DNA of 64,000 nucleotides from Escherichia phage Andreotti. A program made the translations under genes and the position numbers. Numbering within the stretch: the first letter of the stretch is position 1; each line of letters begins with the position of its first letter. The stretch lies in sequence record MN850610.1. One strand, 5' to 3'. The notes below the pieces were generated by a model. It was not told the DNA's origin. It did no database searches and was given only the letters and a program-made list of their open reading frames with translations. Shown here piece by piece: positions 3,532-14,894 of the stretch.

Positions 3532-4032
3532 TCAAGCACAATTTGCTTTCATTACCTTATGGATTCTTTTTTCAGCATCTTCATAAGTTTCTTTAGTAAT
3601 AAACTTAATTGCTGCAATATTGGCATTGTAGAAGAGTCTGAGCTTCGAGTCAATCCTTTTTGTCATTACATCGAACTTATGCTGAAGGTTTGCTTCACCA
3701 TAAACTAGGCCACCTTTTGTGTAGTAGGTTTGGATAATGTAAAAATCAAAAGATTCCTTTCCAAAGCTCTCAATATCTTTTTTAATATACTCAGAAGAAG
3801 TTTCATAAGTCATCCAATCACTCTCCTTAGTGACTACCTTCTTCCGAGTCTTCCCAGCAACTTTTCTTTTGGTCACACTATTAAGCTGCTTCTTACCCAA
3901 ATAGTACTGTCCAGTCTTTTTGCAGTACACTAGGTAGACAAAACCAAAGTGCTTTGCTGGGTCAACTTCACCACATAGTGAAACCCAATGTCCATATTCA
4001 GGGCAATTGCCAAAACCTTTAACTTTAATCAT
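3532..4032 (-). CDS. GIY-YIG-like endonuclease (putative homing endonuclease)
   Basis: N-terminal GFVYLVYCKKTGQYYLGKK resembles the GIY...YIG motif; lies next to an HNH gene. Confidence 0.5.
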   Translation of the reverse strand: MIKVKGFGNCPEYGHWVSLCGEVDPAKHFGFVYLVYCKKTGQYYLGKKQLNSVTKRKVAGKTRKKVVTKESDWMTYETSSEYIKKDIESFGKESFDFYIIQTYYTKGGLVYGEANLQHKFDVMTKRIDSKLRLFYNANIAAIKFITKETYEDAEKRIHKVMKANCA

Positions 4033-4565
4033 TCATGAGCTTCTCCGTGATTTGTAAACTCTCTATGGAGTTCTTCTCTTTTCTTTTTGACAACTGATTC
4101 AGCCTCAGTGATAGAGTCAAATAAACCTAGATGGTAGCATACTTTATTATGCTTGACTTGTGCAGCCCACCTACCCCTTTGCTTGTGGTAATATACACCC
4201 TTCACACCAGACTTATTATCTTTTCTTTTGACTGCATTGCAGTTGTTGTCTGACCTGCTACACTCTCTCAAATTGTCGAACCAGTTGTCGTGCCTGATAC
4301 CATTCTTGTGGTCAACAAATTTTGGGAGGTATCCTTTCATATACAAGAATGCCAGTCTGTGTGCTGCATATCTTTTTCCGAAGAGTTTTATATAAATATA
4401 ACCACTATGATGTTTAAGACCTGCTACTGAGCCAGCTTTGGCCTTACCTTTTCTACCAACTAACCAAGTAAAGACCCCTGTTTCGGGGTCATAGTGCAGG
4501 TATTCTTTAAGAGTTTGTTGAGTTAACATTTGGTGTCCACCCATACTTATCAAAAGTGAAATCAT
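4029..4565 (-). CDS. HNH endonuclease with AP2-like C-terminal domain (putative homing endonuclease); true start may be internal (about 4529)
   Basis: YDPETGVFTW N-terminal motif; HNH-type region HRLAFLYMKGYLPKFVDHKNGIRHDNWFDNLRE; paralog of 14118-14633; 5' end overlaps the 3' end of the FEN gene. Confidence 0.75.
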   Translation of the reverse strand: MISLLISMGGHQMLTQQTLKEYLHYDPETGVFTWLVGRKGKAKAGSVAGLKHHSGYIYIKLFGKRYAAHRLAFLYMKGYLPKFVDHKNGIRHDNWFDNLRECSRSDNNCNAVKRKDNKSGVKGVYYHKQRGRWAAQVKHNKVCYHLGLFDSITEAESVVKKKREELHREFTNHGEAHE

Positions 4566-5553
4566 CTTTCTTGTTTCTTTCCTGATAAGCTAAGAAAAAG
4601 TGTTGCTGCATTAGCTCTAAGGGTGTTCTGGTAATTGTTTGACCATCCCACGAGACATAAGTGTATGACTCTTTCTTAGCATAAAGCTCATAAATTGCAT
4701 CAAGACACTCTTTGTAAGTGGTTTTACCTTCAAGGGCTTTCATTATAGTAACCTTACCAACACCCTTTAAACCAAAATAGTTATCCGCATTATCACCAGC
4801 CACAGCTTGGTAACAAAGAAATTTAAAACCTACCCCAACTGTCTTCTTAGCTTTTGGTGTCGATTTTATTGGGCAATCCCAAATTTCACCAACGTTGTTA
4901 TCAGCAATGAAAATCAAAGGTGACTTTTCATAGGTCATATCAATGCAGTAAGTCCCTTCAGCTTGGCGAAGGTCTTTATCAATACTCATTAAGGCAGCCT
5001 TTTTTCCCATCTTTTCAGCTTTAGCAATAACGATAGAGTCTGCTTCAAATCCATCAAGAATTAGTTTGAACTCTGGTCTTGACAGAAGATACTCACGACA
5101 AGCGACTAAGTGTGTTGGTGTGACAGCATCTTTACGGTTACCTTGATATTGGTGTTCAAGACCTTTAATGTCTTTATGTTTATGCACACCTTTCTCTGTT
5201 AAATAACCTACCCAAGTTCTTTCTTTACCCACAATCTTAAGCCATTCCTGAAGAACCTGTTGAGTAGCCATGATAGCTTCTTTTTCACTCTTAGCTTCTT
5301 TCCAAGTCTGTCTTTCCCATTCATCTTCATCAAATGTCAGGCCAAGTTCTTCCACAAGGATTCTCTGGTCTGCTAACCATCTTGCAGCGTCTTTCGCATT
5401 ATCAAATGGTTCAGATTCCTCTGCTGTGAGTTTATTGACATATTTATATTTTGCTTTCTCAACTACACAAGCACCTTTATAGGCAATACTGTCAGAGTCG
5501 ATAAAAACATGTGTAACTGAATCGGGAAGTTTTGGTAATGTGTACTTCTCCAT
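4507..5553 (-). CDS. 5'-3' exonuclease / flap endonuclease (FEN, T5 D15- or T7 gp6-like)
   Basis: motifs FIDSDSIAY, DGFEADSIVIA and GDNADNYFGLKGVGKVT match FEN-family acidic clusters and helix-hairpin-helix; RBS GGAGAG 5 nt upstream of ATG. Confidence 0.8.
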   Translation of the reverse strand: MEKYTLPKLPDSVTHVFIDSDSIAYKGACVVEKAKYKYVNKLTAEESEPFDNAKDAARWLADQRILVEELGLTFDEDEWERQTWKEAKSEKEAIMATQQVLQEWLKIVGKERTWVGYLTEKGVHKHKDIKGLEHQYQGNRKDAVTPTHLVACREYLLSRPEFKLILDGFEADSIVIAKAEKMGKKAALMSIDKDLRQAEGTYCIDMTYEKSPLIFIADNNVGEIWDCPIKSTPKAKKTVGVGFKFLCYQAVAGDNADNYFGLKGVGKVTIMKALEGKTTYKECLDAIYELYAKKESYTYVSWDGQTITRTPLELMQQHFFLAYQERNKKDDFTFDKYGWTPNVNSTNS

Positions 5554-5570
5554 TATGGCTCTCCATATGA

Positions 5571-5598
5571 AAAAGCCCCATACTAAGTACAGGGCTTT
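5571..5598 (-). terminator. candidate rho-independent terminator downstream of 5616-6473
   Basis: imperfect hairpin AGCCCC...GGGGCT with A-run on its plus side (U-run on minus transcript). Confidence 0.4.
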
Positions 5599-5615
5599 AA
5601 AGTAACTTTTAGAGA

Positions 5616-6473
5616 TTAGTCTTCTGTATCGAAGTCTTCATCTTCTTCGTCATCTGGGTCTGGCAAGTCTTCATCATCACCATCATCAGAATCGTTCGAA
5701 GGTTTGTGGTCTTTTGCGTCTTCTTCAGTGATTTCACCGTTATCTTCAACACCATCAAGACCAAGCATAGCCAGTTCATCTTCATCCAGTTCAGGTTCAC
5801 CATTAGCACCGTTACCACCAGTGTAAGGTACAAGAGTATCAATGATAAACTGTTCCTGAATAGGTTTTGTCAGAACATTGTTCTCAAAAGTGTAGAAGTG
5901 AGTAGAGAGAATCACACTACCGAAAGAACCGTTACCAACTGCAATATCTGGATGAATTACATCATAGTTCTTGTCATCTTCATGTTTATCAGATGCTTGA
6001 GCTTTGATTTTCTTCATCGGCTGTTTAACAGCTACACGCTTACCATTTACTTCTTCAATCAGCATTACAGGGAATGACTGTTTAGCTGTCCATACAGCAC
6101 CATCTTTATAAGCTGCTGCACGACTTACTTTCAAGATGTAGTAAGTGTCTGCTTCAAATGGTGGTTTGCAGCCAAACTTCTCTTCGAAGTCATCTGCATC
6201 AACTGCTTCAGTAGTAACTTTATCCCAACCTTCTGGGTTCTTCTTAGACTTAGTAAACTCTTTAAAGAGTTTGTTACCGTCTTCTGCCAGAATTGATACG
6301 CTGTAGTTACAGTCTTTGCCTGGGAATTTCTTATCAATAGACTTACCTTTTCCCGGACGTGGTGAAGTGTTCAGGTAATAAAACCAGACATCTTTCAGCA
6401 GGTAACGCAGAGTTTGACGTTCAGTACCATTGTACTTCTCTACCGGAGCTTTCATTTTAACAACTTTAGACAT
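5616..6473 (-). CDS. putative ssDNA-binding protein with acidic C-terminal tail
   Basis: strongly acidic C-terminus DDGDDEDLPDPDDEEDEDFDTED as in phage SSBs (T7 gp2.5, T4 gp32); sits between primase-helicase and FEN; inferred. Confidence 0.4.
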   Translation of the reverse strand: MSKVVKMKAPVEKYNGTERQTLRYLLKDVWFYYLNTSPRPGKGKSIDKKFPGKDCNYSVSILAEDGNKLFKEFTKSKKNPEGWDKVTTEAVDADDFEEKFGCKPPFEADTYYILKVSRAAAYKDGAVWTAKQSFPVMLIEEVNGKRVAVKQPMKKIKAQASDKHEDDKNYDVIHPDIAVGNGSFGSVILSTHFYTFENNVLTKPIQEQFIIDTLVPYTGGNGANGEPELDEDELAMLGLDGVEDNGEITEEDAKDHKPSNDSDDGDDEDLPDPDDEEDEDFDTED

Positions 6474-6545
6474 TATTTAAACCTCTATCTCAATTTATGA
6501 AGAGTACCAATTCTAGTTTGTTGATACTCTATTGTCAAATACTAA

Positions 6546-6694
6546 TTACTGGAAGTTGTGCTTATCTTTAGAAGCTGCTTTACGTGCAGTTTTTCCAGTT
6601 CTTACACGTTTTTCTTCATAGTATTTTGCTGGTTTTCCAGCAGTGGCTTTTAAGGAATCCCCAAAAACTTTTTCAAATGCTTTAGAGTGTTTCA
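6546..6694 (-). CDS. small basic protein (49 aa), not in ORF track (below length cut-off)
   Basis: manual translation MKHSKAFEKVFGDSLKATAGKPAKYYEEKRVRTGKTARKAASKDKHNFQ; GGAGA about 6 nt upstream of ATG. Confidence 0.3.
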
Positions 6695-6985
6695 TGATAT
6701 TCTCCGATATACTTGATATTCAAACACATTCTCTTTAATTATAAACAGCCAACTAATATTATGCTGAGGCAGCGCAATGATGACTGTAATCATGCTTTGG
6801 TGGAAATCTTCTTTTATCTCAACTTCCCCGTCGCATTTCATAAGGAGCATTCTATAGAACCTATCAATCTTTGTCAAACACTCTTCCTGAAATTTATTTA
6901 AACTTTTTTCTTCAAAGAAGGGTGTGAACCCCTCTCTTTTATAACTATCACTCAGTTTCGAATGGGCAGTCATCTGCATCCTCAC
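6692..6985 (-). CDS. hypothetical protein (97 aa)
   Basis: ORF track; 3' end of primase-helicase gene overlaps its 5' end. Confidence 0.45.
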   Translation of the reverse strand: MRMQMTAHSKLSDSYKREGFTPFFEEKSLNKFQEECLTKIDRFYRMLLMKCDGEVEIKEDFHQSMITVIIALPQHNISWLFIIKENVFEYQVYRRIS

Positions 6986-8933
6986 TTAATACAGGTGGAA
7001 TCGTTGAGCTTTGACGCTGCTCTTCAGTATAGACTTCACCAGTCTCACGGTCAAACACTTCATCCTCATAATGTGGCAAAGAGTCATCATAATGGTCTTC
7101 AGCTTCACCAATACCAAACTGTTGGCGAATATTTTCTGCTGCGCCATCAATGTCAACTCCACAACCAGATGCTTTGATAAGACGCCCTGTATCTGGATTG
7201 TACCAAGTATGACCAGCAATACCAGTTGACTTACCATGACGACGACATTTAGTTAGCTTGATTTTTGTCAAGTTTTTCTTAACAGGGTCTGGGTCAACCT
7301 TGTTACGCATTAACAGAATGTTGTTCATAGAAATCTGGAAATACGCACCAGAACCTTTAATATCCTCTTCAGAGATATCTCCACCTTCAGAGTTAGCCTT
7401 CTGACCACCTGCACTCTTACGAACGTGACAGACGTTCACCTGTGCATACTGGTAGCGTTTGCAACGACGCAATAGCTCAGATAAAACTTCCTCTTCATCC
7501 GTATCTGAACGTGACAGAGCCAACGTAATAGGGTCAAGAATAATAATCTTACAGTCTAAGCTGTTAACAAGATAGTCAACAAACTCCAGCAAGTTATCTT
7601 GGTCAATTGCCCCTTGATGGTCAACGATGTGGATACGACGACCTTTAGACAGTTCTGCGTGTGCCTTCTTCAATTCATCCCAATCACGTTCGTCATAAGG
7701 AATCTCAGAAATCTGCTTGCTAAGGTGGATTGCACAGAGCATCTCCATCAACTCTTCATAGGTATCTTCTACAGGAATTACACCAATATTGTAATCGGTA
7801 TCTTTCCAAGCAGTATAAATCATTTCACGGGTGTAAGCTGATTTACCTACTGAGGATGGTGCTGCCAGAGTTGTAATCTCACCTAAACCGTAACCACCAT
7901 AAGTCAGTCTGTTCAAATCCCCGAAAGATTCTGGGAAAGGAATCAATGGAATCTGACCACGATTCTTCATTGCCTCAAAACCATCTGCGAAGTTCTTGAT
8001 ACCAGCAGGACAGTAACGAGGTGCATTGTAGATACGCTGCTTAAATCCTTCCAGAACTGTATCTTTCTCTTTATAGAACTTTGTCCACCATTCGTTAAGG
8101 TCTTTTACACCCTCTGGATACTGGAATAAACGAACCTTCTCAATCGGAAGGATACCAGCAGCCTCTTTGGTAGCTTTAGCACCTGCTTCATCATTATCAA
8201 AGCACAAGTAAATCTCATCAAATGATGTGATGTACTGATAGTTGTCTTTGATAGACTTAATGTTTGCACCTGATGGGACAGATACGTGACAGTAATTCTT
8301 ACGACGAGACTTGTCCTTAATCGCAAGAGAAGTCATATAGATTGCTGTCGCACATTCCATCTCACCTTCCCAGATGAATAGGCGGTTACCACCTTCTGGA
8401 GCAATCCATGAACCGAACATTGCAAGTTCACCTTTAATATCTCCAACACCACCAGAAAAGTCTTTTAGCTTACCACGTAGGTGCTCTTTTGGATGGTCTT
8501 CTGGATAACGATGACGTACACGGTAACCGACGTGCTCTAGCTTACCATCTTCATTACGTTTGTAAGTTGGATAGAAATGCGCATCAATTTCACCGTCACT
8601 GTCAATGTCAACCTTGATACCCAAACGCTCAAGAACTTTTGCAGGAATCTTCCTATCCTTTAAGTCCATTGCTTCAAGGTTTTCTTTGACATCTTCTAAA
8701 TCCATTCCACGGAAAGTACGGTTTTTATTGTCTGAACCAGTAGAATAAGTGCTCACGATTTGTCCTTTATCAAAATCCCACTCTGGGAAACCTTTGTTAC
8801 AGCTAAAGCAAGTCATCGAATAAGAATCATCGTCATGATGATAGATTGAACCAGCATCTGATGAACCACAACGTGGACATGCACAATGACCAATAAACTG
8901 ACCAGCCTCTTTCAATTTACGACCTTTAGACAT
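6948..8933 (-). CDS. bifunctional DNA primase/helicase (T7 gp4-like)
   Basis: N-terminal Cys4 zinc ribbon (CPRCGSSD...CFSC), central TOPRIM-like region, C-terminal Walker A GLGEITTLAAPSSVGKS and Walker B IIILDPITLA; start moved to ATG at 8933 with GAAGAGG RBS. Confidence 0.85.
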   Translation of the reverse strand: MSKGRKLKEAGQFIGHCACPRCGSSDAGSIYHHDDDSYSMTCFSCNKGFPEWDFDKGQIVSTYSTGSDNKNRTFRGMDLEDVKENLEAMDLKDRKIPAKVLERLGIKVDIDSDGEIDAHFYPTYKRNEDGKLEHVGYRVRHRYPEDHPKEHLRGKLKDFSGGVGDIKGELAMFGSWIAPEGGNRLFIWEGEMECATAIYMTSLAIKDKSRRKNYCHVSVPSGANIKSIKDNYQYITSFDEIYLCFDNDEAGAKATKEAAGILPIEKVRLFQYPEGVKDLNEWWTKFYKEKDTVLEGFKQRIYNAPRYCPAGIKNFADGFEAMKNRGQIPLIPFPESFGDLNRLTYGGYGLGEITTLAAPSSVGKSAYTREMIYTAWKDTDYNIGVIPVEDTYEELMEMLCAIHLSKQISEIPYDERDWDELKKAHAELSKGRRIHIVDHQGAIDQDNLLEFVDYLVNSLDCKIIILDPITLALSRSDTDEEEVLSELLRRCKRYQYAQVNVCHVRKSAGGQKANSEGGDISEEDIKGSGAYFQISMNNILLMRNKVDPDPVKKNLTKIKLTKCRRHGKSTGIAGHTWYNPDTGRLIKASGCGVDIDGAAENIRQQFGIGEAEDHYDDSLPHYEDEVFDRETGEVYTEEQRQSSTIPPVLSEDADDCPFETE

Positions 8934-9126
8934 TAGCACCTCTTCGTTGTAGTTCTGCTTTTAATCCATTTTCAATCTTATCCAGTTCATGAATTTCATC
9001 TGCAATCTCTTTCCTTCGTGATTCAACTCTCTTAAGACGTTCAATCATTACCTCATTGGAAAGAGATGAGAGTTCCACTAAACGGTGGTCAATAACTTTA
9101 AAATTGTCTTTTACTCTCATCTTCAT
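8926..9126 (-). CDS. hypothetical protein (66 aa)
   Basis: ORF track; charged helical composition. Confidence 0.4.
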   Translation of the reverse strand: MKMRVKDNFKVIDHRLVELSSLSNEVMIERLKRVESRRKEIADEIHELDKIENGLKAELQRRGANV

Positions 9127-9134
9127 TCTCTCTT

Positions 9135-9878
9135 TTAAATCTTCAGGATAGCTCTTAGTTTGCTCTCAAGGTCTTCAAGAGTACCATTATTATGAATAAT
9201 GTCACGCTCATATTTTGTAGAAATGCCATTTTCTGAAACATGTGATGAAACTTTGTCCACATTGTCTCTTTTTACTTCAATAGTTTGGTGTGCAAATCTA
9301 CTCAGCCACTCAGCTTCAGAGTCAAATCTTAAATCACTGATTAAAACAACACCTTCTTGATTTCTAAGTGAGCAAACATCAAAGAAATTTACCATTCGTT
9401 TTTCGAGGTCTTTAGACCAGAACTTGTCACCCATAACTTTACGGATAACTTCAGTGCCCCAAATCTGTTGAATTTGTCTTGATGAGAATTTATACTTTTT
9501 ACTAAATCCCAGACGTGTTAATAGAGTCGGTTTAGCAACCTTCTTAAGCTCCATGATTAATCGTCCGGTTAACTCTGACATAAGCTTAAAATCCATATGG
9601 TAACGTTCGCCTTTGAAGGTGAACTCCATAGCTTCAGTAACTTTGAACATTAGCTCAGGATATGATAAGTCAAATACCTGTGGAGTCTCTTTAGTTTCAC
9701 CATACAGGTCATTCCAAGTCAGGTCAAATATCTTTGATGCAGATAGCTTAAGGTTGTCTGCATAAGCCATTACAGCAACATTATAGCCATATTCATCCTC
9801 TAAGATGTTCTTCACAATAGAACATGAGGTGTCTTTTCCAGAACGTGCCTTTCCAGTAAATGCGATAATATTACTCAT
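9135..9878 (-). CDS. deoxynucleoside monophosphate kinase (T4 gp1-like)
   Basis: N-terminal P-loop IAFTGKARSGKDT similar to T4 dNMP kinase FLSGVKRSGKDT; about 240 aa. Confidence 0.7.
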   Translation of the reverse strand: MSNIIAFTGKARSGKDTSCSIVKNILEDEYGYNVAVMAYADNLKLSASKIFDLTWNDLYGETKETPQVFDLSYPELMFKVTEAMEFTFKGERYHMDFKLMSELTGRLIMELKKVAKPTLLTRLGFSKKYKFSSRQIQQIWGTEVIRKVMGDKFWSKDLEKRMVNFFDVCSLRNQEGVVLISDLRFDSEAEWLSRFAHQTIEVKRDNVDKVSSHVSENGISTKYERDIIHNNGTLEDLESKLRAILKI

Positions 9879-9901
9879 TTTATCTCCCTTAATTACTAAA
9901 A

Positions 9902-9922
9902 AGCCCCCAACTAAGGAGGCTT
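9902..9922 (-). terminator. candidate terminator hairpin downstream of 9940-10740
   Basis: AGCCCCC...GGAGGCT stem with A-run on plus side. Confidence 0.35.
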
Positions 9923-9939
9923 GTAAGATTTATAAAGAC

Positions 9940-10740
9940 TTAGTGCAGTTGCTCAGCAGACTCTTTTTCAGCCATAGCTGAGATTTGCTTCACAAAATCA
10001 TCACCGAAGTTAATGCGTAGTTTCTCTTCAATGATTGAAGCACCAATGTTCACCAAAACATCATTGATTGCTTGCATACTAACGCCACCAGTCATCTCCT
10101 CAATGAACTCAATACTCACACCCATCATCTGTGAAAGTTGGATTAGTGCAACGATATTCATCATCGTGGAGATAGCTGGAATCATCAGTGCAACTTTCAC
10201 CTGAAGTGGTTCTATATCAGCTACAGAGTCATTTTCAACAGCTTCTTCCAAAGACTCTTTAGTTTGCTGGATAATCTCTTTGATTCGTGGGTTTAATTCT
10301 TCTACGCCCCAATCAAGTTTTTCATATCGTGAAAGTTTCTCTTCCATACGCTTCTCAAGAACAGCCATAACAGCACTCGTTGATGAGATAAGCGTATCAA
10401 TAATGAAATCAGTGTCCTTAGTCAGCAACAGTTCCTTATCTTCGTCTGACATCCTGATATAGTCATTCTTTTGCATTTCATAAAAAATGAACTCAGCAAG
10501 TGCATCAACACCAACCGCAATAGATGCCAGAGCAAGTGTAGTGTCTGTTAACATCATGTTGACCTGTTCTGCAAAAGCACCGTTATCAGACTTGTCTTCA
10601 GGCAAGTTATAGCTTGCAGGCATAAACTGTTCTGTGTAGTTGTTACCACGAAGAATCATAGCCATGCTTTCTACGGCATTGATTAAGAATGCTTCATCAA
10701 CACCTTTCTCTTCAAGCATCTTTTCTACATCGATATTCAT
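9940..10740 (-). CDS. hypothetical acidic protein (266 aa)
   Basis: ORF track; Asp/Glu-rich. Confidence 0.55.
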   Translation of the reverse strand: MNIDVEKMLEEKGVDEAFLINAVESMAMILRGNNYTEQFMPASYNLPEDKSDNGAFAEQVNMMLTDTTLALASIAVGVDALAEFIFYEMQKNDYIRMSDEDKELLLTKDTDFIIDTLISSTSAVMAVLEKRMEEKLSRYEKLDWGVEELNPRIKEIIQQTKESLEEAVENDSVADIEPLQVKVALMIPAISTMMNIVALIQLSQMMGVSIEFIEEMTGGVSMQAINDVLVNIGASIIEEKLRINFGDDFVKQISAMAEKESAEQLH

Positions 10741-10741
10741 A

Positions 10742-11164
10742 TTATTTCTCTCTCAGTTGGTTAAGTTTCTTTCTAGAACATTTTAAGTTTTCGGATGAAG
10801 AAAAGTCAAGTGTCTTTTCAGAACGTGGATAATAGTGCCTATCCCAAGAAGTTTCAACATCGTTAATCAGTGACGCTAGATTACACAGGTCTGTACCACT
10901 TTGCAACCTCTTTTTAAGAGAATCTAGTAAAGCAACTGTGTCTTTAGCTTTACGTCTCGCTGTAGCAACATCTTTCATATGCTCAAACACAGAGCATTTT
11001 AAGTCATCTTCATAGTTTTCAGATAACTCTATTTCATGTTGTATATCAACCATTCTCCTGTGATGGTGAGCATATTCCCGTTGAGCAGCAATGTCAAGTT
11101 CTTCCAACTTCTGCAAAGCTCTAACAAAGTCAGCTATGTCTGGGTGAACAAACATTTTCTGCAT
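10742..11164 (-). CDS. hypothetical protein (140 aa); first gene of a minus-strand operon
   Basis: ORF track; divergent from the DNA polymerase operon. Confidence 0.5.
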   Translation of the reverse strand: MQKMFVHPDIADFVRALQKLEELDIAAQREYAHHHRRMVDIQHEIELSENYEDDLKCSVFEHMKDVATARRKAKDTVALLDSLKKRLQSGTDLCNLASLINDVETSWDRHYYPRSEKTLDFSSSENLKCSRKKLNQLREK

Positions 11165-11340
11165 GTAAGCCTCTTTTAAGTAACTATTAAGTTTTAATCT
11201 TTTATCTTAACGTATTCTATACGTTATACTTTAAAGCTTTTTAAAAGCTATTAAATAATCTTTTAAGAGTTTTAAAGTATCTGTATAGTTAAACTGTTAA
11301 GTAACCTTTTAAGTAAAAACCCACTTCGCAAAGATTAACA

Positions 11341-11362
11341 CCTTGTCAAGTGCATTGTCAAC
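11341..11362. promoter_or_regulatory. conserved control element CCTTGTCAAGTGCATTGTCAAC in divergent intergenic region
   Basis: near-identical 22-mer recurs at 53989-54010 in the other divergent region; contains palindromic CTTGTCAAG core and second TTGTCAA; TATAAT at 11371-11376. Confidence 0.4.
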
Positions 11363-11421
11363 TTGCTTTTTATAATTTTTTGCAGTAATGTATGAGGTTA
11401 ATGATTTTAGAGGGAGTAAAA

Positions 11422-14121
11422 ATGGAAAACGTAGATTTTAAAAACTTACATTTAGTTGGTGATACAGAAACTGATGGTTTACTCCTTGAGTTCACTAAAG
11501 TGCACGTAATGGCTTTCGCAGACTATAAATCTGACGATGAAGAGCCGCCTGTATGGGTCTTTACAGATGAGCCTATCCTCGGTCACAAGTATACCAAGTA
11601 TATTAAGGGTGGCTTACGTGAAGGTATTGAGTTTGCGTTAAAGGCAAAACGTCTTTGCATCCATAACGGTCTCGGTTATGACTGGTGGGTTTTCAATCAC
11701 ATTGCACCTGATTTATGGAACTTTGATAATCCAAAGTGTAAACCGTGGAGTAATTTCTTTCAGGATTCTCTTATCCAGTCTCGTGTTCAGTGGATGGATA
11801 GACCAACTCCAAAGGGTTATAAAGGTGCTCATGGTTTGGCTGCATGGGGTGCTCGTGTCGGTGTTCGTAAACCAGAGATTGAACATTGGGGTGTGTGGAA
11901 TGCAGAAATCTTCACTCGTGTTGTAGAAGATATCCGTATTAACGCCAAAACTAAACGGGCACTTGATAACGAGTATCTCAAGCTTAAGAAGTGTGGTATA
12001 GACACTTATGAAACTTACATGCGAGCTAAAGAAACATCTTTCTGGATGAGTCAACAGGCTATCAATGGTTGGAAAGCTGATAAAGAGCTTATGGAGTTCC
12101 ATGTAAAGGAACTTGACAAGTTGACTAATGAACTTGCTTCAGAAGTTGAACCGCATCTACCTCCAACTATTAAGACCAAAGGTAAAGTCACTGGAGAAGA
12201 GTTTGCAAAAGCTTGGAATGAGTATGTTGAAGCATTTGGTCATGCAGATGGACTGAAAAGAATTACCAAGTACCCTAAGACGAAGTATCGTCAGCAGGTG
12301 CGTAATGGTGAGATGCAGACTTATGAAATCAAACCATTTGGTAAGCCAACTACAAAGATTTTTAACATTGAAAAAAGGAATTGCTATACACCAACCAACT
12401 CTGTAACTGGTGAAGAGTACAAGGAAGGTTTTGTAGCAATGAAGGATGCTCGTGCAATTTGCAATGAGTTGAATGCAAAGATTGGTAAGAAATGCAAAGA
12501 CTGGAAGCCAGTAAAAACAGTCAAAACTGTGAAGTACTATAACAGCCACGTTGTTAACCACTTTGAACTTGAGTCAAGTCGCTACACAGGTTTGATTGAT
12601 GCACCATATACACCAATTGAGTTTGAAGTTTCTCGTATGACTCAGGTAGCAGTTGTTAAAGACTACTTGAAATCGGTTGGTTGGATTCCAGATGACTGGA
12701 ACTACAAGAAAGACTCAGACGGTCGCCCTGTCAAAGTTTGTCGTTTCAAAGACAATAAAAAGATGATTACAAAACATCCTAAGTGGCAGGAAATGGTTGA
12801 GCGGTGTGGTTTGAGCTATGTTGAGCACGAAGGTGTACAGTACATTGAGCATAATTGGTCTGTGAAGAAATACACAGATTTGCTTGAACCTTGCTTAATC
12901 CGTACTTCACCAAAACTTACTGAATCATCTTATGATACGATTGAAGGTGAGCTTGGGCAGAAGATTGCTAAATACTACACTTTGATGCACCGACGCAGAA
13001 CTATTGAGAACTCAAAGGATGACGAGAAAGGTTGGCTGAACCAGATTCGTCCAGATGGTCGCCTTAGTGCTGGTGCAATGGTATTTGGTACTTCAACTGG
13101 ACGTATGACCCAGTATGGTATTGTAAACGTACCGTCTGGTGCTGCTGTCTATGGAGAACCAATGAGGGCAGTGTGGATTTGTGAAGAGGGAACCAACGTA
13201 GTCTCTGTTGATATGAACTCAGCCCAGCTAGTTCTACTTTGTAACTTTATGGGTGATAAAGAGTTCACCAAAGCGGTAACGCAAGGTAAAGAAGAGATTG
13301 AGTTTATTCGTCAAGAAGATGGACGCTATTACTGCAAACATTTTGATGAGTACCTAAACCCAGAGATTGATAAGTACCTTCGCTATGACTCTGAGAATGA
13401 CCTGTACGTTGTCTATTCAGGGACTGATGCACATACACTGAACAGTATTTACTTTAGCTTGAATGATGAGCAGGATATCTTGACTTGTCGAGCTACTCAG
13501 GATGAGAATCTTCTTCATGAGATTAGCAAAGGTCGTAAGAAAGCTAAGAATGGTATCTATGCACTACTGTTTGGTGCAGGTGATGAAAAGTTTGCTAAAA
13601 CTATTAAGGCAGCCACTACTCAGGAAGGTGCATTAACTAAACAGACTTACTTTGTGCGTTTGCCAAAGATTAAGAAACTATTAGATGACTTGGAAGATGA
13701 CTACAAAGCAACTAAAAAGGCACTTGAAGAGGTGTTTGGTAAGACTGCTGCAATCTCTAAAGGGGGCTTTGTAAAGGTTGCTGGAGCTTGGTTGTGGTGT
13801 AAATCTCCACATAAGTTATTGAATTATTTGCTCATGGGTTCGGAGGCTCAGATTCAGAATGAGGCAATTAACCTTGCTTGTAGAAGAGCATGTGAAGAAG
13901 GGTTGACAAAATTAAATGGACGAAAACCAGCAATTGGTGCTAGGCTTTTGCTGGCATACCACGATGAAAACAGTTGGGAGTGCCCAGAAAGTATGACTCA
14001 AGAAGTTAAAGCCATAACTGACTGGATGTATGGTCAGGCATCTAAGAATTTAGGTTTGAAGAGTGAGACGCTTGTAACTGGCACAGGAAAGGTTGGTAAG
14101 AGCTGGTATGAGGTACATTGA
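11422..14121 (+). CDS. DNA polymerase, family A (T7-like), with 3'-5' exonuclease domain
   Basis: Exo I motif DTETDGL; pol motif A-like VDMNSAQL, motif B KKAKNGIYALLFGAG, motif C HDE; start placed at ATG 11422 with GAGGGAG RBS rather than track start 11392. Confidence 0.9.
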   Translation: MENVDFKNLHLVGDTETDGLLLEFTKVHVMAFADYKSDDEEPPVWVFTDEPILGHKYTKYIKGGLREGIEFALKAKRLCIHNGLGYDWWVFNHIAPDLWNFDNPKCKPWSNFFQDSLIQSRVQWMDRPTPKGYKGAHGLAAWGARVGVRKPEIEHWGVWNAEIFTRVVEDIRINAKTKRALDNEYLKLKKCGIDTYETYMRAKETSFWMSQQAINGWKADKELMEFHVKELDKLTNELASEVEPHLPPTIKTKGKVTGEEFAKAWNEYVEAFGHADGLKRITKYPKTKYRQQVRNGEMQTYEIKPFGKPTTKIFNIEKRNCYTPTNSVTGEEYKEGFVAMKDARAICNELNAKIGKKCKDWKPVKTVKTVKYYNSHVVNHFELESSRYTGLIDAPYTPIEFEVSRMTQVAVVKDYLKSVGWIPDDWNYKKDSDGRPVKVCRFKDNKKMITKHPKWQEMVERCGLSYVEHEGVQYIEHNWSVKKYTDLLEPCLIRTSPKLTESSYDTIEGELGQKIAKYYTLMHRRRTIENSKDDEKGWLNQIRPDGRLSAGAMVFGTSTGRMTQYGIVNVPSGAAVYGEPMRAVWICEEGTNVVSVDMNSAQLVLLCNFMGDKEFTKAVTQGKEEIEFIRQEDGRYYCKHFDEYLNPEIDKYLRYDSENDLYVVYSGTDAHTLNSIYFSLNDEQDILTCRATQDENLLHEISKGRKKAKNGIYALLFGAGDEKFAKTIKAATTQEGALTKQTYFVRLPKIKKLLDDLEDDYKATKKALEEVFGKTAAISKGGFVKVAGAWLWCKSPHKLLNYLLMGSEAQIQNEAINLACRRACEEGLTKLNGRKPAIGARLLLAYHDENSWECPESMTQEVKAITDWMYGQASKNLGLKSETLVTGTGKVGKSWYEVH

Positions 14122-14633
14122 TGAGAGATTGTGGATTCACACATGAACAGTTAAAGTCTTGGTTAGATTATGACCCCGAAACAGGGGTCTTAACATGGAT
14201 TGGCAGACCCCCACATAGTAGTAGGGTGGTTATTGGAAGCCAAGCCGGAGCAATTAAGCGCACAAGGTCTGGTGTGTATATGCACACACAGATTTTAGGA
14301 TACAGGACAGGTAATCACCGAATTGCTTGGTTCTGGATGACAGGTAAGTGGCCTGATAAACACATTGACCACAAAGATGGAGATGGTTTGAATAACGCTT
14401 GGGACAATCTAAGAGAGGCCACAAAAGAACAGAATATGTCTAATAGGAGACAACCTAGAACATCAAAAAACTTAAAAGGTACAAGTAGAAGCAAGTCTGG
14501 TAAGTGGATAGCCCAGATTAACCATAATGGCAAGACTATACATATAGGAACATACACAACAGAAGAAGAAGCCCATAAAGCTTACTGTGAAGCTGCTGTG
14601 AAACTCCACGGAGAGTTTGCAAAACTATCTTGA
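14118..14633 (+). CDS. HNH endonuclease with AP2-like domain (putative homing endonuclease)
   Basis: YDPETGVLTW motif; HNH region HRIAWFWMTGKWPDKHIDHKDGDGLNNAWDNLRE; start overlaps polymerase stop (ATGA); paralog of 4029-4565. Confidence 0.75.
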   Translation: MMRDCGFTHEQLKSWLDYDPETGVLTWIGRPPHSSRVVIGSQAGAIKRTRSGVYMHTQILGYRTGNHRIAWFWMTGKWPDKHIDHKDGDGLNNAWDNLREATKEQNMSNRRQPRTSKNLKGTSRSKSGKWIAQINHNGKTIHIGTYTTEEEAHKAYCEAAVKLHGEFAKLS

Positions 14634-14684
14634 CAAGGTGCTCATGGAAGAGTACCTTATACAATATCTTATATAGGAGGGCTT

Positions 14685-14894
14685 ATGAGCCACCGTGGAA
14701 GAACCCATGCAGCGATGATGAAAGGTGCTTCAAAGGAAACTATCAAGAACCGTAAGCAGAAGTTGTTTGAGAGAATGAATAGACTCATTGATAACACTTC
14801 CCTGTCTGGTGGTGAGAAAGTTTTCCTTAAAAGTAACCTTAAAAGTATTGCACAAGAACTTGTAGATATTGAATATTGGAGACATCAAAAATGA
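14685..14894 (+). CDS. hypothetical protein (69 aa)
   Basis: ORF track; AGGAGG upstream of ATG. Confidence 0.45.
   Translation: MSHRGRTHAAMMKGASKETIKNRKQKLFERMNRLIDNTSLSGGEKVFLKSNLKSIAQELVDIEYWRHQK

Follow-up and report, generated by a model that had tools for sequence, protein, structure and literature searches.

Two HNH-AP2 genes adjoin replication genes

The 64,000-nucleotide (nt) stretch of DNA of Escherichia phage Andreotti analysed here (MN850610.1; referred to as the window) contains two genes for HNH nucleases with AP2 domains, each positioned at the 3′ end of a replication gene. The gene HNH-1 (positions 4029–4529, minus strand) encodes 166 amino acids and is located between the gene of a 5′–3′ exonuclease and that of a GIY-YIG nuclease, and HNH-2 (14121–14633, plus strand) encodes 170 amino acids and follows the gene of DNA polymerase. 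An earlier reading of the sequence, called the original prediction below, had listed the corresponding open reading frames (ORFs) at 3532–4032, 4029–4565 and 14118–14633; all of them exist, the first two on the minus strand and the third on the plus strand. It had interpreted the HNH genes as polymorphic, free-standing homing endonuclease genes (HEGs) inserted beside conserved replication genes, and had included the GIY-YIG gene in the mobile arrangement. Precise empty sites, intact catalytic motifs and horizontal transfer uphold the interpretation of the two HNH genes; that of the GIY-YIG gene was not supported.

The 13-kb region around these genes has 95.6% identity with Escherichia phage vB_EcoM_ASO1B and 94.7% with Salmonella phage Felix O1, and its gene order matches that of Felix O1 from ORF111 to ORF88. 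The region is matched by 298 phage records, nearly all of them Ounavirinae (Felixounavirus, Suspvirus, Mooglevirus and Erwinia phages). The window belongs to a Felix O1-like phage of the genus Felixounavirus. The occupancy of the two sites was surveyed with junction-spanning queries, using an even-spread listing over all matching GenBank phage records, and alleles were typed with tblastn on 72 loci fetched from GenBank and IMG/VR. Some of the sampled loci represent the same phage in two collections, and the loci are not phylogenetically independent.

The exonuclease gene (4507–5553, minus strand) is T7 gp6/FEN-like, with a phrog_107 match (5e-66) and weak Pfam 5_3_exonuc matches. The polymerase gene (11392–14121, plus strand) is uninterrupted and encodes a family A enzyme (Pfam DNA_pol_A, 3e-16; phrog_17, 1e-113). 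Both HNH ORFs are separate from the flanking genes and are read in a different frame. The longest ORF of HNH-1 begins at 4565; the conserved start is the ATG at 4529 (MLTQQTLKEY...), which is common to all alleles and aligned with the start of HNH-2.

Both proteins are of the HNH(HNN)-AP2 type. They match Pfam HNH_3 well above its cut-off of 24.8 bits (HNH-1, E 1.1e-12, 47.9 bits; HNH-2, E 1.3e-14, 53.9 bits), and HNH-1 also matches phrog_99 (2.4e-75). The AP2-like C-terminal domain predicted for both proteins exceeds the Pfam cut-off of 33.3 bits in HNH-2 (E 9.7e-9, 35.8 bits), and that of HNH-1 falls short of it, as discussed below. In the PDB, HNH-2 matches the plant AP2/ERF domains 7wq5 (6.5e-8), 5wx9 and 1gcc, and weakly I-HmuI (1u3e, E 0.048). 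Of the further domains named in the original prediction, GIY-YIG was matched through the SegE family, and NUMOD4 gave no match in either HNH protein at E ≤ 0.1 in Pfam. NCBIfam gave no match for HNH-1, HNH-2 or the GIY-YIG protein.

HNH-1 and HNH-2 are paralogues, as had been proposed. Their proteins are 37% identical over 164 amino acids (E 3e-30), the alignment runs through the AP2 region, and the motif YDPETGV(F/L)TW is present in both. A phmmer search of all ORFs of at least 50 amino acids found no family members in the window other than these two, and no other HEG is listed for the rest of the window in its closest annotated relative. The catalytic residues are VDHKNG..DN..NLRE..DNNCN in HNH-1 and IDHKDG..NN..NLRE..QNMSN in HNH-2. 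The D, H, N, NLR and N of this ββα-metal motif are invariant across 10–39 alleles, with the sole exception of a frameshifted HNH-1 copy in phage Si3.

Exact empty sites define the cassette boundaries

The boundaries of the two insertions were set by aligning the window with phages that do not contain the genes (NBEco005, AYO145A and Meda), a check put forward with the original prediction, and the alignment revealed exact empty sites at both junctions. In the empty state of the exonuclease site, the exonuclease and GIY-YIG genes overlap by 11 nt (ATGAAGATTAA), and the junction in NBEco005 or AYO145A reads ...TGTATGAATGAAGATTAAAGG... The HNH-1 cassette, at about 4033–4530, adds 494 bp to this arrangement. 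It also rewrites the end of the exonuclease, which is ...KYGWTPNVNSTNS in the window and ...KKYNWEPCMNED in the empty-site phages; with tblastn, the exonuclease query matched residues 1–348 at occupied loci and 1–344 at empty loci. The proposed overlap of HNH-1 with the exonuclease gene is real, and from the conserved start at 4529 it measures 23 nt, not 59. At its other end, the stop codon of HNH-1 is joined to the start of the GIY-YIG gene by an ATGA overlap (4029–4032), so that the GIY-YIG start is re-coupled to HNH-1 in the window. The original prediction had placed this ATGA overlap at the wrong junction, between polymerase and HNH-2.

The junction of polymerase and HNH-2 is TGATG: the polymerase stop TGA occupies 14119–14121, and the ATG of HNH-2 begins at 14121, overlapping it by 1 nt, with GAGG located 7 nt upstream. 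The alternative start, a TTG at 14118, is less likely. In the empty state, the polymerase stop is followed by 6–7 nt and then by TTGACA and a conserved 51-nt intergenic region ahead of the homologue of Felix O1 ORF94. The polymerase end at the empty junction of NBEco005 or AYO145A reads ...TGGCTTGAGGTTCACTAATTAGTGTTGACA... In the window, about 505 bp separate the polymerase stop from the intergenic region, and the stop codon of HNH-2 lies within the TTGACA (14630–14635) that opens it. The intergenic region and the next gene (14685–14894) together form the right-hand flank of the HNH-2 cassette in the alignment (14634–14894, plus strand).

Scans for promoters and terminators belonging to the HEG cassettes gave no more sites than shuffled sequence; therefore, the HEGs are probably expressed by read-through and translational coupling. 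A 'promoter' annotated after HNH-2 in AYO145A was rejected, since the spacing of its hexamers (22–24 nt) is not canonical and it was absent from the scan output.

Both sites are polymorphic and carry series of diverged alleles

Full-length DNA matches to HNH-1 were found in 42 records and to HNH-2 in 49. The exonuclease site is occupied in 20 and empty in 37 of 57 informative rows (about 35% occupied). At the polymerase site, an HNH gene is present in about 30 of 51 rows (about 60%), and the remainder includes six exact empty sites, nine sites with an unrelated ORF of ~200 bp and four deletions. The universal presence with broken motifs that would speak against homing endonucleases was thus not observed for the HNH genes, the motifs of which are intact.

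The occupied sites contain different alleles. At the exonuclease site there are at least three types, with 95–100%, 58% and 54–56% amino acid identity to HNH-1. The polymerase site has at least five: 96–100% and 88–89% (both of the window's type), 48–49%, 43–47% and 38–40% (the Felix O1 type). Alleles at one site have similar ends and dissimilar middles. The first 22 residues are common to all exonuclease-site types, and the last ~20 are also common to types A and C. At the polymerase site, the last 71 nt of the HEGs (14560–14630, plus strand) form a 3′-terminal module that retains 89–100% nucleotide identity in all types, although these are otherwise only 38–49% identical as proteins, and empty sites do not have this module. 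At the exonuclease site, the 3′ ends of the HEGs carry the ribosome-binding site of the GIY-YIG gene; at the polymerase site, they adjoin the conserved intergenic region. Plausibly, the likeness of the ends is maintained by the constraint from the downstream gene together with recombination between competing alleles.

The records of phage VpaE1 and of 'VpaE1_ev' were considered as a possible experimental gain of an HEG, and a literature search found no paper on them.

HEGs were transferred between lineages and are linked to flanking sequences

An 84.7-kb metagenomic phage contig (IMGVR_UViG_3300045988_028620; locus L064) carries HNH-2 at 96.4% nucleotide identity to the window, beside a polymerase gene with an identity of 72%. 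This polymerase is about 68–70% identical to that of Erwinia phage phiEa104. The HNH-2 gene of L064 (3400–3901) occupies the same junction as in the window, and the identity profile rises abruptly from 78% to 98% at precisely 14121/14122 and stops at 14621. The contig is a clean case of HEG transfer across lineages. Similarly, SP116 and Meda have the window's HEG at 96–99% in polymerase backgrounds of 75–83%. LMP25 has the window's polymerase end at 98% (its C-terminus 99% identical as protein), yet carries a different HEG that is 44% identical.

Sliding identity profiles showed that the deepest and widest troughs of divergence adjoin both cassettes, against a background of 93–100%. In HEG-less phages, identity decreases to 75–84% in the 3′-terminal 600 nt of the exonuclease gene and to 78–81% in the 5′-terminal 130 nt of the GIY-YIG gene. 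The last 200 nt of the polymerase gene decrease to 70–78% in all seven relatives profiled, including HEG-bearing ones. The polymerase segment 13901–14118 is hypervariable, with 70–82% identity in nearly all relatives, among them ASO1B, which has the same HEG; it reaches 97–99% in only five loci, which carry the same or a different HEG. Among Felixounavirus loci, the window-like allele of the exonuclease 3′ region was present in 9 of the 12 with an HEG and in 2 of the 14 without one (Fisher p = 0.004, for samples that are not independent).

Each HEG type goes with its own version of the last five polymerase codons, which also differs from the empty-site version. The terminus is TGG CTT GAR GTN CAC TAA in 14 of 15 Felixounavirus-like empty sites, TGG TAT GAG GTA CAT TGA with HEG types a and b (including the window), TGG TTG GAA GTR CAT TRA with types c and d, and ACA TGG TAC GCC GTA CAC TAA with the Felix O1 type. 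Such type-specific codons would be expected for a nuclease that recognizes the empty junction, with protective changes in the occupied alleles. We infer that the empty junction may be the recognition site and that the terminal codons of occupied alleles may be protective, which is directly testable. One locus (L057; IMGVR_UViG_2706796270) has no HNH gene and contains an unrelated ORF of ~200 bp, yet its polymerase has the type a/b terminus (TGGTATGAGGTACAC, WYEVH*). The locus may have lost an HEG and kept its footprint, or the allele may be a resistant one.

Proposed mechanism and alternative explanations

HNH-1 and HNH-2 are very probably free-standing homing endonuclease cassettes at polymorphic sites. 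The architecture, polymorphism, horizontal transfer and flank linkage of the genes are evident from the sequences; cleavage activity, a target site and homing events are putative, and the following mechanism can be proposed. Each ~500-bp cassette directly adjoins the 3′ end of an essential replication gene: HNH-1 lies in what is otherwise an 11-nt overlap of the exonuclease gene and the core GIY-YIG gene, and HNH-2 between the polymerase stop and the conserved intergenic region of the next gene. Both HEGs would be read from the host operon by translational coupling, since their starts overlap or abut the upstream gene and the stop of HNH-1 overlaps the start of the GIY-YIG gene. In a mixed infection, the nuclease would cut or nick, close to the junction, an allele that has no HEG or a different one. 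During recombinational repair with the HEG-bearing genome as the source, the cassette would then be copied in along with neighbouring polymerase or exonuclease sequence. The allele with the HEG would itself be protected, because its site is split and its last codons are changed. Diverged HEG alleles may replace one another at both sites, recombining through their shared 5′ and 3′ end modules.

Several observations weigh against this reading. The polymerase site is occupied in most relatives, and part of the pattern could reflect old occupancy with allele turnover and occasional loss, not frequent new invasion. The AP2 match of HNH-1 (E 2.8e-7, 31.2 bits) is slightly under the Pfam cut-off. The association of HEGs with flanking alleles is confounded by the shared ancestry of the sampled phages.

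It is improbable that the HNH-AP2 genes are domesticated, as AP2 regulators of transcription or replication or as general nucleases, and that their patchiness reflects repeated loss of an ancestral gene. Domestication would agree with the occupancy of the polymerase site, which extends over three genera, with the embedding of the genes in operon signals by translational coupling and by 3′ ends that contain a downstream ribosome-binding site or abut the intergenic region, and with the invariant nucleotide element described below, which suggests some integrated function. However, the exact empty sites occur in genomes that are otherwise 93–100% identical, and alleles at the same site differ by 40–60% in protein between flanks that are more than 90% identical. 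The HNH-2 gene of L064, at 96% beside a 72% polymerase with the step at the ORF boundary, indicates gain and not loss, and the catalytic residues are retained across alleles, the frameshifted Si3 copy apart.

We regard as quite improbable the second alternative, in which the divergence beside the sites is ordinary mosaic recombination between lineages and the HNH genes hitch-hike. The 13-kb region has other troughs away from the HEGs, for example around 6700 and 10300, and an intron-associated polymerase allele contributes to the divergence as well. Nevertheless, the deepest and widest of the troughs are the two beside the cassettes, the breakpoints fall at ORF boundaries, and each HEG type has its own set of last five polymerase codons.

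As homing endonuclease cassettes, the HNH genes make the 3′ regions of the polymerase and exonuclease genes unreliable for phylogeny, and they are markers of recombination hotspots in a genus of phages that is employed in Salmonella typing and biocontrol.

The GIY-YIG gene belongs to the core genome

The GIY-YIG gene (3532–4032, minus strand; 166 amino acids) encodes a SegE-like nuclease domain only. Its protein matches PF19835 (SegE_GIY-YIG) at 4.7e-27, with 95.1 bits against a cut-off of 25. The residues W16, G30, Y33, Y44, G46, K48, W73, Y76, S79, E113 and N136, which are invariant in 47 diverse members of the family, are all retained; the canonical Arg of GIY-YIG nucleases could not be identified in the window's protein. 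A word-indexed protein search returned just 10 matches, and an exhaustive search was needed to see the family, which comprises 1,347 representatives at E ≤ 1e-3. The protein ends right after the nuclease domain, unlike P0010 (270 amino acids) and many homologues of 230–360 amino acids, which have a C-terminal extension. A sequence search of the PDB gave nothing meaningful. The AlphaFold2 model, calculated from a 9-sequence alignment, has a mean confidence (pLDDT) of 70.8, with values below 50 in the catalytic region (111–149). A Foldseek comparison of the model with the PDB gave no significant match, and I-TevI (1ln0) was in second place with a weak score (E 0.63, TM 0.49). Because of the mediocre model, family membership was based on the Pfam profile and the conserved residues.

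The gene is present in 297 records, compared with the 298 that match the region, including Erwinia phages. Its identity bands follow those of the whole region, and its position is identical in all 35 loci examined. Between genera, the protein is 86–87% identical and the nucleotide sequence 79–81%, and the higher identity of the protein indicates purifying selection. We conclude that the GIY-YIG gene is a fixed, vertically inherited core nuclease gene of Ounavirinae, outside the mobile arrangement to which the original prediction had assigned it. That it is nevertheless a free-standing homing endonuclease, forming a tandem mobile pair at the exonuclease locus, is very unlikely: the SegE_GIY-YIG match, the retained invariant residues, the longer relatives with C-terminal extensions and the name 'GIY-YIG homing endonuclease' in many GenBank records are outweighed by the near-universal presence, constant position, identity bands that parallel those of the region as far as the Erwinia phages, purifying selection and the missing DNA-binding extension.

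In many records the gene is labelled 'NAD synthetase', a label derived from phrog_447, and in others 'GIY-YIG homing endonuclease'. It is not an NAD synthetase and not a demonstrably mobile homing endonuclease, and these database labels are unsupported. A frameshift splits the gene in phage EC6 (L039).

An invariant inverted repeat is located inside the HNH genes

The terminator scan flagged the sequence GACCCCGAAACAGGGGTC inside HNH-1, at the inverted repeat GACCCC-GAAACA-GGGGTC (4473–4490, minus strand), which encodes D-P-E-T-G-V. The same 18-mer is present in HNH-2 (14172–14189, plus strand). The window has no other match to GACCCC-N6-GGGGTC; the expected number is 0.03. The repeat lies 40–52 nt into every HNH-AP2 ORF of Ounavirinae, at the 3′ edge of the shared 5′ module, and encodes the D-P-x-x-G-V of the shared motif.

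The 12 bases of the stem are unchanged in 20 distinct hairpin-bearing variants, which comprise all Felixounavirus, Suspvirus and Mooglevirus allele types at both sites. Among these variants there are five versions of the loop, and neighbouring codons vary synonymously. In 12 type representatives with a median protein identity of 45%, 21 of the 26 columns with an invariant amino acid use 2–4 codons; the single-codon columns are only the four stem codons and one Asp. Local folds predict the hairpin with z values of -2.8 and -3.5. We conclude that selection acts on the hairpin stems at the nucleotide level.

The hairpin is not a general feature of the HNH-AP2 family, an idea rejected after the examination of ~70 homologous genes of other phages found with degenerate peptide patterns. 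These genes encode YDP(E/D)TG(V/I) in varied codons with 1–4 complementary positions. One metagenomic contig and an HNH-AP2 gene of Klebsiella Vequintavirinae also have the hairpin, the latter with another loop. Most of the other sporadic cases come from GC-rich contigs, where they can be explained by codon bias. A canonical intrinsic terminator was judged unlikely, as the U-rich tail after the HNH-1 hairpin is not conserved among the types. A search of the literature library did not find the 18-mer in any paper.

In the Si3 copy of HNH-1 (L017), the frameshift results from the loss of one nucleotide from the C4 run in the hairpin stem, at locus position about 3565; either the copy is decaying or the loss is a homopolymer sequencing error. 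A similar difference of 1 nt is seen in some unannotated GE_vB records.

The chances are about even that the repeat is a cis-acting nucleic-acid element carried by the HEG cassettes themselves. As one candidate role, an RNA hairpin may attenuate or time the expression of a toxic nuclease from the host operon. As another, the repeat may be an operator for the AP2 domain; in 2004, Magnani et al. reportedly found that AP2 domains of HNH-AP2 proteins bind G/C runs. A third candidate is a hotspot of recombination or template switching at the boundary of the shared 5′ module, which would let alleles swap their specificity cores. If functional, the hairpin would illustrate, on a small scale, how a signal for regulation or recombination can travel with a selfish gene.

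The motif YDPETG(V)xTW (residues 13–22 of HNH-1 and 17–26 of HNH-2) closely resembles the designed β-hairpin miniprotein chignolin, the sequence of which is GYDPETGTWG, and the literature that matches YDPETG concerns chignolin. The conserved nucleic-acid hairpin therefore encodes a likely β-hairpin turn of the protein.

Relation to known systems

The arrangement of the HNH-AP2 genes is already known and annotated in GenBank, and homing endonucleases of this type have been described for Felix O1 since the 2000s. The Felix O1 genome has six HNH homing endonuclease genes (PMC3185647; 2010), and a Felix O1 HNH-AP2 protein is one of the founding examples for the view that endonucleases of this kind gave rise to plant AP2 domains (PMC4237383). 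Surveys of the T4 group treat HNH-AP2 genes as a class of their own (PMC2993671). The Felix O1 genes ORF106 (NP_944978) and ORF95 (NP_944955) occupy the same two positions as HNH-1 and HNH-2 and have the same HNH_3 and AP2 architecture. HNH-1 shares 95% identity with ORF106 and 100% with ASO1B_105, and HNH-2 is 99% identical to the annotated ASO1B_094. The polymerase-site allele of Felix O1 differs: with an identity of 39%, it extends over the last 19 nt of the polymerase gene, which has the terminus TWYAVH*. The present analysis contributes the exact cassette boundaries, the series of mutually replacing alleles at each site with their shared end modules, and the variants of the last polymerase codons that go with each HEG type. 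As a new lead, only the hairpin with its conservation at synonymous sites stands out; otherwise the finding is already known.

The HNN-AP2 endonucleases of Xanthomonas phages Xp10, OP1 and Xop411 have the same box pattern as those of the window (HRLAW..., DH, DNR, NLRE, xN, then AP2; PMC2248197). Like the window's genes, they are free-standing and present in several copies per genome; they degenerate after fixation, and a model of gain and decay was proposed (PMC2248197). However, these phages belong to another family and have other insertion sites, and that paper reports neither a site-specific allele series nor a nucleotide hairpin (PMC2248197).

I-HmuI and I-HmuII of Bacillus phages SPO1 and SP82 belong to the same Pfam HNH_3 catalytic family as the genes of the window. 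Their target is the polymerase gene, and flanking exon sequence is co-converted. I-HmuI is intron-encoded and has a helix-turn-helix C-terminal domain, whereas the genes of the window are free-standing and have AP2 domains.

The free-standing HEGs of T4 (seg and mob; SegG, MobE) are small nuclease genes between conserved genes and are polymorphic among relatives. They are inherited with flanking markers (intronless homing, marker exclusion) and lack their own promoter or are tightly regulated. They are of the GIY-YIG and NUMOD or mob-type HNH kinds, in contrast to the HNH-AP2 genes of the window with their diverged allele series sharing end modules at one site. The catalytic domains of T4 SegE and I-TevI resemble the GIY-YIG protein of the window in the SegE_GIY-YIG domain and the conserved Tyr...Tyr...Glu...Asn; the GIY-YIG gene differs from them in that it has no C-terminal DNA-binding region and is not polymorphic. 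The T4 free-standing HEGs were reviewed by Edgell et al. in 2010 (cited in PMC8300805).

Other insertions in the replication module

In many relatives, the polymerase gene is split at a position corresponding to about 13563/13564 by an intron-like insertion of 229–800 bp (L013, 183–945; L012, 708–936; L003; L066–L071). In JH2 and Si3, the insertion holds an 'endonuclease VII'-type gene. The polymerase segment 13101–13900 of insertion-bearing relatives is just 78–86% identical to the window. A further HNH gene is located inside a split anaerobic ribonucleotide reductase gene (nrdD) of Meda (L003, 4434–4898) and skuden (L004, 1718–2182), beyond the range of the window. With these nrdD insertions, the replication and nucleotide-metabolism module of Felixounavirus holds several independent mobile insertions.

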